Virus record (IMG/VR): IMGVR_UViG_2880412407_000012
Direction: 5' to 3' (one strand)
DNA: 33,642 bases
Source of the DNA: a virus
Lineage: Duplodnaviria > Heunggongvirae > Uroviricota > Caudoviricetes
Part shown: piece by piece, positions 18,001 to 21,000 of the stretch
Numbering within the stretch: the stretch's first letter is position 1
Layout of the letters: each line of letters begins with the position of its first letter
Position numbers: made by a program

Positions 18001-21000
18001 TCGCTTCGGCGGGCCTTTTTTGTATCTGCGCCACGCCCGGCGCATATCAACCACAGAGCCTTTCGGGGGGGAGCTTACGGAGTGGTCAGTGTGACTTTCT
18101 CTGTGGGCAGATCGCTCCCGGGCGTTGGCTCACCCACCCAAAGGAACGTCACGATGTTTGGTATTTTTGGTAAAAAAGCCCGCCGAGCGGCAGTGGAAAT
18201 TAAAAAGTTTGAGAAACGTGATCTGGCACAGGCGGTTATTAATGCTGCCTATATGGTGGCCTATGCAGATGGTGAATGTGAGGCTTCAGAGAAAGCGAAG
18301 ATCGAGCAGGTCTTGCGTAACCAGCCTGCGTTGTCCGCGTTTACGTCAGAAATTAATGCGATTAGCGCAACCATTATCGGTCAGCTGGATACGAACTTTA
18401 AAACTGGTCGCCGAGCGGCATTGCGTGAAATTGAAGATGTGAAACACGATACGCGTGAAGCGGAAGATGTGCTGGATGTGGCGGTGGCCATTGCGGAGGC
18501 AGACGGCGAAATTGAGCCGGAAGAGCGCAAGGTGCTGGAAGAGATTGCCGGTGTTCTGGGTCTTCGTCTGGAGAATCACCAGTGACGGTAAAACTGCGCC
18601 TGGCTGTGGCTGCACTCCTGCTGTTTCTGGTGGTGATGGTGGATTTCACCAGCAGAATTATGTCGGTGCTGGCGGATGGGGTGCTGGTCTGCGGCATTGT
18701 GGTATTGCTGTGGCCGGTGATAAAAAGAAACAGCCTGCATAATGCTTGATTTTTTTTATTTGCTGTTTATTAAAAATACTACTGCATGGTGAATCCCCCT
18801 GTGCGGAGGGGCAATCAGCAACCAGGTATATGTGATAATCGCGGATTCAGGTGCTGATACTGAATTCACCGGGAGGCACCCGGCACCATGCAAGAAAAAG
18901 AATGTGCATGCAAACATGCCCCTCTCCGGAGGGGCTTTTTTATGGGTAAAAAATGCCCGAATGGGTTCGGGCAATAGCATGAGATACTGATATTGTTGTG
19001 TTGTTATCGTGTGGATTTTAACCAGGGTTTATCAGGCTGCGCAACTGCGTGGCCTTTTTTCATTTCTTGGGCTGTAGTCCCCGTGTGTCATTCAGGCTTC
19101 CGGACTACAGCCCACTCCATATCTGATTTAATACACTATCCCGGCCGGGAGGAATAATGACATTTAAACATTATGATGTTGTCAGGGCGGCGTCGCCGTC
19201 AGACCTTGCGGAAAAGCTGACACACAAACTGAAAGAGGGCTGGCAGCCATACGGCGGACCGGTTGCCATTACGCCGTACACACTGATGCAGGCGGTGGCT
19301 ATTGAAGGAGAGCCACCGGTCGGCCCTTCATCTGAGCCGGATTGGTACTACGTCATCGTACTGGCCGGGCAGTCCAATGCCATGGCTTACGGTGAAGGGC
19401 TTCCGCTGCCGGATTCATACGATGCTCCGGATCCGCGCATTAAACAGCTGGCGCGCCGCAGTACAGTGACGCCGGGCGGGACTGCCTGCAGATATAACGA
19501 TATTATTCCGGCCGACCACTGCCTGCATGATGTGCAGGATATGAGTACGCTGAATCATCCGAAGGCAGACCTGAGCAAAGGGCAGTACGGCTGTGTCGGC
19601 CAGGGCTTACATATTGCCAAAAAACTGCTTCCGTATATCCCGAATAACGCGGGGATCCTGCTGGTACCATGCTGTCGTGGTGGTTCGGCATTCACCCAGG
19701 GCGCGGAGGGGACATTCAGCGAGTCCACGGGGGCCAGTCAGGATTCGGCACGCTGGGGGGTGGGCAAGCCGTTATATCAGGATCTGATTTCCCGCACAAA
19801 AGCGGCATTGCAGAAAAATCCTAAAAACGTTCTGCTGGCCGTCTGCTGGATGCAGGGAGAGTTTGACATGAGCGCCGCCACCCACGCACAGCAACCTGCG
19901 CTGTTTACAGCCATGCTGACACAGTTTCGTGCTGACCTCTCCGTGTTTAACGCGCAGTGCCATGGTGGCAGTGCTGCAGATGTGCCGTGGATTTGTGGTG
20001 ACACGACGTATTACTGGAAAAATACATACGCTACCCAGTACGACACCGTGTACGGCGGGTATAAAAACAGGGAGAGTGAGGGCGTTTATTTTGTGCCCTT
20101 CATGACAGACGGTAACGGCGTCAATACCGCCACTAACGCGCCGGCAGAAGATCCGGATATTCCGGCATCAGGATATTACGGTGCGGCATCGAGAACGAAT
20201 GGAAACCAGGTATCATCAAACCGCCCGACACATTTCAGTTCATGGGCGCGCAGGAGCATTATTCCGGATCGTCTGGCAACCGCTATTCTGAACGCAGCCG
20301 GGCGCACCTCAGCCTTCATCAGTGGTAAGGCACCGGAAATCAAACCCTCGCCCGGCGGCAACACGCCATCGGGTCCGTCTGCAGATACGTCCGTTCGCAC
20401 AATCTCCCTGCTGCCGGCAGCCGGAGAGGCTGCTGCGCAGGGCTGGAGCATTAAGGATGGCGGAATTCAGTTGTCAGATGGTGTATTTAAGATCACCAAG
20501 CAGAGCAATAAAACCTGGTCCCTGACGCATCCGGTGGATGACGCAATTACCCTGCTGACACAGGGCGGCAGACTGACCTGTAAGTTCCGCCTGTCAGGCG
20601 CACTGACCAACAATCAGTTCGGGCTGGGGATTTATCTGTATACGGATGCTCCCGTTCCTGATGGTGTGGCGATGACGGGTACCGGTAATCCGTTCCTGAT
20701 GTCGTACTTCACTCAGACCACTGACGGCAGAGTGAATCTGATGCATCACAGGAAAGCCGGAAACACGAAGCTGGGGGAGTTCGGCGATTACGGTAACGAC
20801 TGGCAGACGCTGGAGCTGGTGTTCACCGCCGGCAGTGCCACGGTTACTCCGAAACTGAATGGAGTGGCTGGCCCGGCATTCCAGGTTATAAAAGACAGTC
20901 TGACACTGGGACTGAATGCGCTGACGCTGACGGATGTTACAAAAAATGCAGCGTATGGCGTTGAGATAGAAAGTCTGATGCTGGAGATAAATGCACCGGC

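Follow-up and report, generated by a model that had tools for sequence, protein, structure and literature searches.

A tciA-tciB gene pair in the Shiga toxin cargo slot of a degraded lambdoid prophage

IMG/VR record IMGVR_UViG_2880412407_000012 is a 33,642-nt stretch of tailed-phage DNA, hereafter called the window, that comprises a complete but degraded lambdoid prophage integrated between yjjG and prfC. Between two tRNA genes and a nanS-p-like esterase gene lie two overlapping genes which are, almost beyond doubt, the phage pair tciA/tciB in a moron slot. Pfam, PHROG and the NCBI Prokaryotic Genome Annotation Pipeline (PGAP) agree on this identity, and tciA/tciB of phage P1, gp27/gp28 of phage Pollock and tciA/tciB of phage JLK-2012 are homologous to the pair. 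The slot is the one that holds the toxin genes stxAB in Shiga toxin (Stx)-converting phages, and the locus as a whole is probably best explained as a coupled, membrane-associated accessory module of the lytic phase. The pair itself is already catalogued and very common, and the layout of moron and small RNAs (sRNAs) has been published. [quoted passage not shown]

The gene pair and its distribution

The upstream gene, tciA, runs on the plus strand from ATG at 18154 to TGA at 18585 behind a Shine-Dalgarno sequence, AAGGA, at 18141..18145, and encodes a predicted soluble, cytoplasmic protein of 143 amino acids (aa) with a TerB fold. Residues 26-138 match Pfam TerB (PF05099) at 59.6 bits, where the cut-off is 24.4 (E = 4.7e-16), and the protein falls into PHROG 632 (1.5e-68). 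Its AlphaFold2 model, made with 17 sequences, is all-helical, with a predicted local distance difference test (pLDDT) score of 87.4 and a predicted template modelling score (pTM) of 0.82. A profile of the family aligns to Klebsiella TerB (PDB 2jxu) with E = 7e-15, query residues 15-137 covering chain residues 21-144, so that the TerB fold proposed in the earlier, sequence-only reading of this DNA is upheld by both Pfam and structure-based comparison. Two acidic DGxxxxxE motifs, at residues 39-46 and 117-124, are invariant or nearly so; such motifs have reportedly been proposed as metal-binding. TciA also matches DUF533/YebE and, in DjlA, the TerB-like segment, both weakly; in these proteins a TerB-like domain is held at the inner membrane by a transmembrane helix.

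The downstream gene, tciB (GTG, 18582..18749, plus strand), encodes 55 aa with two hydrophobic helices. Its GTG overlaps the tciA TGA in the sequence GTGA (18582..18585), and a Shine-Dalgarno sequence, GGAGA, lies at 18570..18574. TciB matches Pfam DUF3927 (PF13064) over model positions 2-50 of 53 with 62.3 bits (cut-off 25; E = 4.3e-17) and belongs to PHROG 1470 (4e-30). TciA and TciB are both identical to RefSeq WP_ entries, and the median ratio of nonsynonymous to synonymous substitution rates (dN/dS) of TciB is 0.30 by pairwise Nei-Gojobori comparison. TciB proteins stand alone and are ~50-58 aa long. The hydrophobic stretches span residues ~7-20 and ~26-46, and each terminus carries basic residues. 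In all 30 TciB sequences compared, Asp21-Phe22 in the turn and Asp32 in the second helix are unchanged, and most sequences also keep Ser28, a Trp-Pro close to where the second helix ends and a Ser that follows Phe22 by one or two positions. The positive-inside rule would put both termini of TciB in the cytoplasm, with the DFTS turn and Asp32 facing the periplasmic side. No holin family in Pfam or PHROG matches TciB, which hits only DUF3927 and PHROG 1470; a class II holin is annotated elsewhere, at 22721..22927.

The Pfam match, the conserved adjacency to tciA described below and the dN/dS of 0.30 argue that the 55-aa open reading frame (ORF) is a real gene, and one of a small family. An exhaustive DUF3927 profile search of 1.84 billion representative proteins returned 117 clusters, nearly all of stand-alone proteins of 50-60 aa. 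Five longer matches (87-176 aa), inspected as possible domain fusions, look chimeric or frameshifted, and no genuine fusion of DUF3927 to another domain was found among the matches inspected. Fusions of TerB to DUF3927 were likewise rejected as Rosetta-stone evidence, being frameshift artefacts. Two minus-strand ORFs that run across the pair (89 and 99 aa) were set aside because the plus-frame genes have family matches and are under purifying selection. The absence of the small ORF from the supplied ORF track is probably due to its length, which is below the 60-aa default cut-off of the ORF lister used for the present analysis; it shows up there when the cut-off is lowered to 30 aa. Novelty does not hold, as the ORF is already represented by PF13064, PHROG 1470 and P1 tciB and is annotated by PGAP.

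Linkage of the two genes was followed with a hidden Markov model (HMM) built from four TciB sequences and run on 80 viral loci and on 33 loci representing one genome per species. A TciB ORF directly follows the TerB gene in 79 of the 80 viral loci, the sole exception being cut by a contig end, and in 27 of the 33 species-representative loci, with TciA identity ranging from 96% down to ~38%. The positive loci span Enterobacterales, Aeromonadaceae and Pseudomonas. Among the remaining species loci, two carry a divergent TciB-like hairpin and two from Marinomonas have nothing at this position; in Pseudomonas juntendi and a Paracoccus metagenome-assembled genome, the TerB gene is followed by a 67-68-aa protein with a single transmembrane segment that is unrelated to DUF3927, the start of which overlaps the TerB stop by a few bases. 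Most tciB starts lie at an offset of -3 (GTGA) or 0 (TAATG/TGATG) from the tciA stop, with a few at -7 or +1.

Of 5426 complete E. coli genomes, 839 contain the 596-bp pair, at a median of six and a maximum of 10 copies each, and PGAP annotates both genes in each E. coli record among the matches listed. In prophages of enterohaemorrhagic (EHEC) and enteropathogenic (EPEC) E. coli, this slot is thus most often held by tciAB. Conservation of the 55-aa ORF, on which the sequence-only reading had made its case depend, extends from homologous prophages to unrelated phage types: adjacent pairs occur in the lambdoid JLK-2012 and PPyecE_EH1910, in plasmid prophages of the P1, D6 and SJ46 type and in the strictly virulent N4-like phages Pollock (gp27/gp28) and FSL SP-058/076. 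Homologues of TerB are also encoded by Klebsiella, jumbo Erwinia, Vibrio and Pseudomonas phages. In Pollock, a group I catalytic intron (Rfam, 101 bits; 3555..3907) lies just downstream of the tciAB neighbourhood.

A slot shared with stxAB

The slot was compared with that of the Stx2c-converting phage LC727876. Window positions 16154..18032, which hold a methylase gene, both tRNA genes and a terminator, are 98.9% identical to the Stx2c phage. Nothing in that phage corresponds to the following 737 bp (18033..18769), which hold the leader and the gene pair, and homology resumes at 18770, within an STnc100 sRNA present in both. In their stead, the Stx2c phage carries an interval of 1375 bp that encodes an A subunit of the ribosome-inactivating protein (RIP) family and an SLT_beta B subunit. 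The esterase gene further downstream is similar to that of the Stx2c phage in patches of 72-86% identity. In a four-way alignment, the hairpin GGCTCGCTTCGGCGGGCC, its T-run and ATCTGCGCC are common to the Stx2c phage, the window, PPyecE_EH1910 and JLK-2012, and the four elements diverge directly after this shared terminator and ATCTGCGCC. PPyecE_EH1910 and JLK-2012, which both bear tciAB, have quite different upstream genes. Judged from these alignments, tciAB and stxAB occupy the same slot at nucleotide resolution, and the simplest account would be that recombination at conserved boundaries has exchanged the cassettes, rather than that a toxin phage has decayed.

The sequence-only reading had placed the pair in the toxin slot of Stx phages on the basis of gene order, and both parts of that claim stand. 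Q, tRNA(CAT), tRNA-Arg(UCU), a terminator, the TerB-like ORF, the GTG ORF, a further terminator and the nanS-p-like gene all lie where it had put them, and the flanking identity, shared terminator and resumed homology fix the slot. It had also seen no toxin subunit, in agreement with the finding that the window slot holds only the TerB and DUF3927 ORFs and no ORF resembling a Stx A or B subunit, such as those encoded by the Stx2c interval. Its suggestion that other cargo has replaced the toxin is unsupported. Since tciAB is common in E. coli and present in P1, N4-like and other phages, it is the ordinary occupant of the slot and stx the less common alternative; occupancy of the slot alone does not justify inferring that stx was replaced.

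The left boundary of the exchangeable cassette is an intrinsic terminator found by a terminator scan at 17997..18016 plus a T-run, the boundary element as a whole spanning 17997..18022 (plus strand). Between it and tciA lies the tciA leader (18023..18153, plus strand). In this leader of ~130 nt the scan found no consensus sigma-70 promoter, and as a structured RNA it has a fold z-score of only -1.98 and no Rfam match even at a permissive threshold. Terminator and leader are upstream of tciA in all 80 of the close viral loci.

Two plus-strand tRNA genes precede the terminator. The first, with anticodon CAT, is an ileZ/ileX-like tRNA-Ile2 at 17752..17827 (ARAGORN; Rfam tRNA, 72.5 bits; tRNA-Ile in PGAP) and is 85.7% identical in DNA to trnI of P1; the second is a tRNA-Arg (TCT) at 17908..17984 (ARAGORN; Rfam, 73.4 bits). 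The 80-nt spacer between them (17828..17907) keeps apparent tRNA acceptor-stem halves (gccac... / ...ggtggcg) and looks like an internally deleted argN. Related loci have three tRNAs (CAT, TCG, TCT), and the Stx2c phage has the same two-tRNA form as the window. Although tRNAs of the ileZ/argN/argO type are usually found upstream of tciA in the 80 close viral contigs, a tRNA lies within 3 kb upstream in only 8 of the 33 species-representative loci. A functional link between tciAB and tRNAs was accordingly set aside in favor of a shared history of the slot.

Upstream of the tRNAs, a DNA methyltransferase gene occupies 16653..17711 on the plus strand (Pfam N6_N4_Mtase, 2.9e-43). It is preceded at 16095..16178 (plus strand) by a putative pR' promoter and tR' short-transcript terminator, where the hairpin GCCGCTGAGCGG and a T-run at 16159..16171 (terminator scan) come after a -10-like TATTATAT. 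Homology links this region to the stretch that directly follows Q in PPyecE_EH1910 and, from 16154 on, to the Stx2c phage. The antiterminator Q gene of the window (14219..14560, plus strand) encodes 113 aa, is named "antiterminator Q family protein" by PGAP at the near-identical locus, and its product shares 58% identity with the Q located ahead of the homologous promoter region of PPyecE_EH1910. A 1.46-kb insert of low GC content (28-34% against ~52% around it) parts Q from the pR'-like region and carries two overlapping minus-strand ORFs of 182 and 308 aa (14573..16034). Neither protein matches Pfam, NCBIfam or PADLOC. The 308-aa protein is a member of PHROG 2802 (function unknown), and its uncharacterised family is confined to Enterobacterales (E. 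coli, Salmonella DT104, Edwardsiella, Klebsiella, Serratia and Pectobacterium); the insert could be a candidate defence or moron insert.

To the right, an STnc100-family sRNA related to PasD begins 9 nt after the end of tciB and occupies 18758..18947 on the plus strand (Rfam RF02076, full-length, 148.1 bits against a gathering threshold of 47). The strong terminator that had been noted here is present on the plus strand at 18918..18935, and is not merely a terminator, as it forms the 3' hairpin of this sRNA. An STnc100-family sRNA also follows stx2B in the Stx2c phage, and STnc100 lies downstream of tciAB in 68 of the 80 close viral contigs. Convergent with it is the anti-GcvB sRNA AgvB (18948..19009, minus strand; Rfam RF02702, full-length, 96.5 bits against a gathering threshold of 56), the sequence of which equals the family consensus save for letter case at a few positions. 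The nanS-p-like sialate O-acetylesterase gene follows at 19157..21007 (plus strand; Pfam DUF1737, SASA and DUF6645), and its DNA is 99.2% identical to that of its phage 434 counterpart. For O157 prophages, Tree et al. 2014 (PMC4104026) describe a slot downstream of a Q-antiterminated pR' in which the coding sequence of the moron is followed by convergent sRNAs and then by a conserved esterase ORF, and a 2026 preprint by Zhu, Shabalina and Storz relates STnc100 to PasD and includes TerB genes in its list of genes conserved next to Pas sRNAs. The moron, sRNA and esterase layout of the window is the same; in their accessible parts both sources focus on the sRNAs, leave the small ORF unnamed and give the TerB gene no function.

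A proposed role and its rivals

The pair lies on the same strand as Q, downstream of the pR'/tR'-like segment and of a second terminator at 17997, a layout consistent with membership of a Q-dependent late operon. In P1, tciABC is located between the C1-operator-controlled Pban promoters and ban, and in Pollock the pair is found among early and replication genes. By position, the pair appears to lie in units active during lytic growth in three unrelated phage lifestyles. That P1 keeps the pair in its C1-repressed ban operon, and virulent N4-like phages theirs in the early/middle region, argues for a job in lytic growth rather than in lysogenic conversion.

In the scheme that best accommodates these observations, tciA-tciB is an accessory moron cassette in the usual cargo slot of the lambdoid late operon, with the pR'-proximal tRNAs on one side and, on the other, the convergent sRNAs upstream of nanS-p. 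Polymerase modified by Q would read through the two upstream terminators, with tciAB transcribed mainly on induction. Overlap of the tciA stop with the tciB start would couple their translation and give a roughly 1:1 complex, and TciB would anchor TciA at the inner membrane or partner with it there. Its likeliest job would then be to guard the inner membrane of the infected cell or exclude competitors from it, candidate threats being superinfecting phage, pore-forming colicins and membrane-depolarising abortive-infection effectors. That TciA and TciB form a membrane-associated complex made in the lytic phase seems likely, with ample room for doubt; the specific protective or exclusion role is a tentative suggestion, and rather less probable. 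The earlier description of the cargo as membrane-active or stress-related is plausible.

A role in membrane protection is suggested by the phage-inhibition and colicin-resistance phenotypes of the ter operon, which the gene name tci itself carries, by carriage of the pair in virulent phages and by the occurrence of TerB in membrane-linked defence. Bunzi, Shango and Dionysus, three validated defence systems with links to the membrane, contain TerB domains, and a "membrane surveillance" role has been proposed for the TerB domains of defence systems (bioRxiv 10.1101/2022.05.11.491447, 10.1101/2025.09.30.679545). By extension, and more speculatively still, a minimal module of a TerB-fold sensor coupled to a DUF3927 hairpin with conserved acidic residues may be used in lytic growth by lambdoid, P1-like and N4-like phages to exclude other phages or colicins or to neutralise membrane-acting defences of the host, as a phage-side counterpart of Shango, Bunzi and Dionysus. 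If this were true, the module, present in as many as ten copies in an EHEC genome and induced together with Stx phages, could influence the outcome of induction and toxin release. As a sequence feature the locus is ordinary, both genes having family names, RefSeq accessions and a published context. What interest remains lies in a module that virulent N4-like phages share with P1 and with lambdoid prophages, that stands in the Q-controlled slot used elsewhere for Shiga toxin, that reaches about six copies per typical EHEC genome and that has circumstantial ties to TerB-based membrane immunity; a role for tciAB would also give one to Pfam DUF3927.

Several points weigh against a jointly acting, induction-dependent module. 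Phage 434 (3112..4344) encodes a TciB with no TerB gene; before it stands an unrelated polytopic membrane protein of 247 aa and after it a membrane protein of 62 aa. TciA and TciB thus need not always function as a pair. In an AlphaFold2 model of a natural TerB-DUF3927 read-through fusion (P0127), the TciB part is one long helix with pLDDT 52-79, and this low-confidence segment gives no sign of contact between TciA and TciB. TciB exposes few cytoplasmic residues, making a direct interface with TciA not obvious. As for expression, STnc100 copies are abundant in uninduced EDL933 cultures (PMC5331693), indicating that the locus is not strictly silent before induction, and the match of Q to the qut site of the window is putative only. 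The prophage is defective, lacking head genes in the PGAP annotation, and is further degraded by insertion sequence (IS) elements. In P1, CRISPR interference (CRISPRi) found tciA, tciB and tciC to be non-essential, hence dispensable for laboratory plating (PMC10695390). Finally, the literature on tciA/tciB, DUF3927 and phage TerB, covered in part for DUF3927, yielded annotations, the P1 CRISPRi call and a mention at transcript level, and no experiment on TciA or TciB. The 247-aa protein of phage 434 was separately considered as a cryptic TerB and rejected, being polytopic and membrane-embedded with an hhalign probability of 0.06.

Among the alternatives, the one that survives best, though distinctly unlikely, holds that the pair protects the lysogen through abortive infection: TciA would sense membrane perturbation by an incoming phage and free or activate TciB as a pore-former, whereupon the cell dies or arrests. 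Such a pair might be a minimal relative of Dionysus, with its TerB-like DinB and four-transmembrane pore-former DinC. The presence of TerB domains in Bunzi, Shango and Dionysus fits, as do the two hydrophobic helices and conserved acidic residues of TciB, which would suit an oligomeric pore; defence morons are common in prophages, and the copy number in EHEC genomes is high, at up to 10. No PADLOC model was matched, however, the sole hit being to PDC-S48 (E = 0.0016). With two terminators upstream and no consensus promoter of its own, the pair should be poorly expressed in a lysogen, and neither carriage by virulent N4-like phages nor the C1-repressed ban operon of P1 suits lysogen defence.

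It is less probable again that the pair is an anti-defence decoy, in which a phage TerB and its membrane partner block TerB systems of the host (ter, Shango, Bunzi or Dionysus-like) or other membrane-acting effectors. Such a decoy would fit the range of carriers, which includes virulent and temperate phages as well as plasmid prophages and has the pair in lytic units, early or late; the homology of TciA to cellular TerB, which runs the whole length of the protein, also fits. However, TciA is only distantly similar to the TerB models of defence systems, PADLOC returned no hit, and the lambdoid copy would come late for defences that act early. An equally improbable idea is that the pair tunes the timing of lysis (and, in co-resident Stx phages, toxin release), with TciB acting as a holin or antiholin and TciA as its regulator. 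TciB does resemble class II holins and pinholins in size and in its two-helix hairpin, and in lambdoid phages ~4 kb of the late operon separates tciAB from the holin gene downstream. Yet TciB matches no holin family in Pfam or PHROG, the pairs of P1 and N4-like phages lie far from lysis genes and are expressed early, and P1 knock-downs plate near-normally.

Tolerance of tellurite, oxidative stress or metals conferred on the lysogen is more improbable still. The idea draws on the TerB family name, on the acidic DGxxxxxE motifs with their reportedly proposed metal binding and on the tellurite resistance of STEC lineages rich in tciAB. That resistance, however, is attributed to a complete ter operon on a separate prophage-like element (PMC8193136), and isolated phage terB is regarded as functionally unassigned (PMC3728262); no terC, terD or terE is annotated in the prophage, and strictly virulent phages carry the pair. 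Lastly, that the 55-aa ORF is a chance frame, or the pair a decaying remnant devoid of function, is barely credible: the prophage is degraded and the ORF is short with a GTG start, but its Pfam DUF3927 match has E = 4.3e-17, reading frame, register and start overlap alike are kept down to ~38% TciA identity where the TciB HMM matches, dN/dS is ~0.3 and both proteins are identical to RefSeq entries. On this weighing, a coupled, membrane-associated module of lytic growth is still the preferred account.

The prophage setting and known systems

In the PGAP annotation, the near-identical locus opens with an integrase gene; genes for CI/Cro-like regulators, for replication and of the nin type then lead up to Q. 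Beyond Q come two hypothetical genes on the minus strand, a small ORF, the DNA methyltransferase, tRNA-Ile and tRNA-Arg, followed by a "tellurite resistance TerB family protein", a "DUF3927 family protein" and the SASA esterase. The right part comprises IS600, holin, lysozyme and Rz genes, a terminase truncated by an IS3 element, tail genes and NleG-type effectors. IS600 lies at 21130..22286, between esterase and holin, and an IS3-family element at ~26068..27245, between a truncated terminase small subunit and a truncated tail-tip gene. An NleG effector gene and two DUF1076 genes are still carried at the right end (30321..32322). The late region is a mosaic: its left part is Stx2c-phage-like (98.9%), the tciAB cassette matches PPyecE_EH1910 and JLK-2012 at 93-94%, and the part from esterase to holin is 99.2-99.9% identical to phage 434, broken by IS600.

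Further features of the window stand apart from the cassette. Directly after the integrase gene, at ~1352..3483, PGAP places a hypothetical protein and a CHAT-domain protein, which may be further defence-type cargo at the attachment-site end. At 8166..8354, isrK (56.6 bits) lies beside a C4 antisense RNA (82.8 bits) at the cro-like/ymfL end of the early operon, with a Rha family regulator further downstream; the same pair of RNAs is found in JLK-2012. The C4 antisense RNA family is best known from the immunity of P1 and P7. A match to the Rfam ALIL pseudoknot, a frameshift element of IS3-family elements (24230..24346, minus strand, 121.5 bits), sits in a stretch that PGAP leaves unannotated between an Rz-like lysis gene and a PerC-family gene, and may be an IS remnant. 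The Hfq-binding sRNA isrC (28438..28560, minus strand, 150 bits) is antisense to the gene of an Ail/Lom-family outer-membrane protein.

Compared with tciA-tciB(-tciC) of P1, the window pair has the same gene order and the same kind of stop/start overlap. TciA is 41-52% identical between the two (tblastn) and TciB 58% over the unmasked core. Both pairs stand beside phage tRNA genes that include an ileX-like tRNA(CAT), and in both a function is assigned by homology only. P1 has a third ORF, tciC, of 35 aa, whereas no ORF abuts the tciB stop in the window, and tciC occurs only in P1-like loci. The P1 copy belongs to the C1-controlled ban operon and the window copy, as its layout suggests, to a Q-dependent late operon.

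Relative to the ter operon (terZABCDEF), TciA is homologous to TerB of Klebsiella (2jxu) over nearly its full length, with an all-helical fold and acidic motifs in both and low identity. The PGAP annotation of the near-identical prophage gives no terC, terD, terE, terZ or terA as partner, and the phage-borne TciA is paired with a 55-aa membrane protein instead. Because no other ter gene is annotated, TciA is by context not a ter-operon TerB.

The defence systems Shango (SngA), Bunzi (BnzA) and Dionysus (DinB with DinC) combine a TerB-like domain with membrane-embedded partners, as tciAB does. Their partners (a helicase/ATPase, a MAEBL-TM protein and a four-transmembrane pore-former) are not annotated near the window pair. 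A PADLOC scan gave only the weak PDC-S48 match for TciA and nothing for TciB; Dionysus is newer than the PADLOC release used, and membership of it was judged by gene content only. These systems reside in defence islands, whereas tciAB is carried by phages, virulent ones included.

With the stxAB moron, the window shares the methylase, the ileZ-like and argO-like tRNAs, the terminator, a cargo position, the STnc100-family sRNA and nanS-p, as well as the same expected logic of Q-dependent read-through. The cargoes are unrelated, a RIP A subunit and an SLT_beta B subunit in 1375 bp on one side and a TerB-fold and a DUF3927 protein in 737 bp on the other, and the sequence of the window cargo gives no sign that it is a toxin or exported. 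Taken together, ter-operon context, defence systems modelled in PADLOC, Stx subunits and a holin family or lysis-cassette position were not found for the pair, and the systems to which the locus does belong are Pfam TerB, DUF3927, P1-type tciAB (minus tciC), the flanks of the stx moron slot and the Rfam families STnc100 and AgvB.

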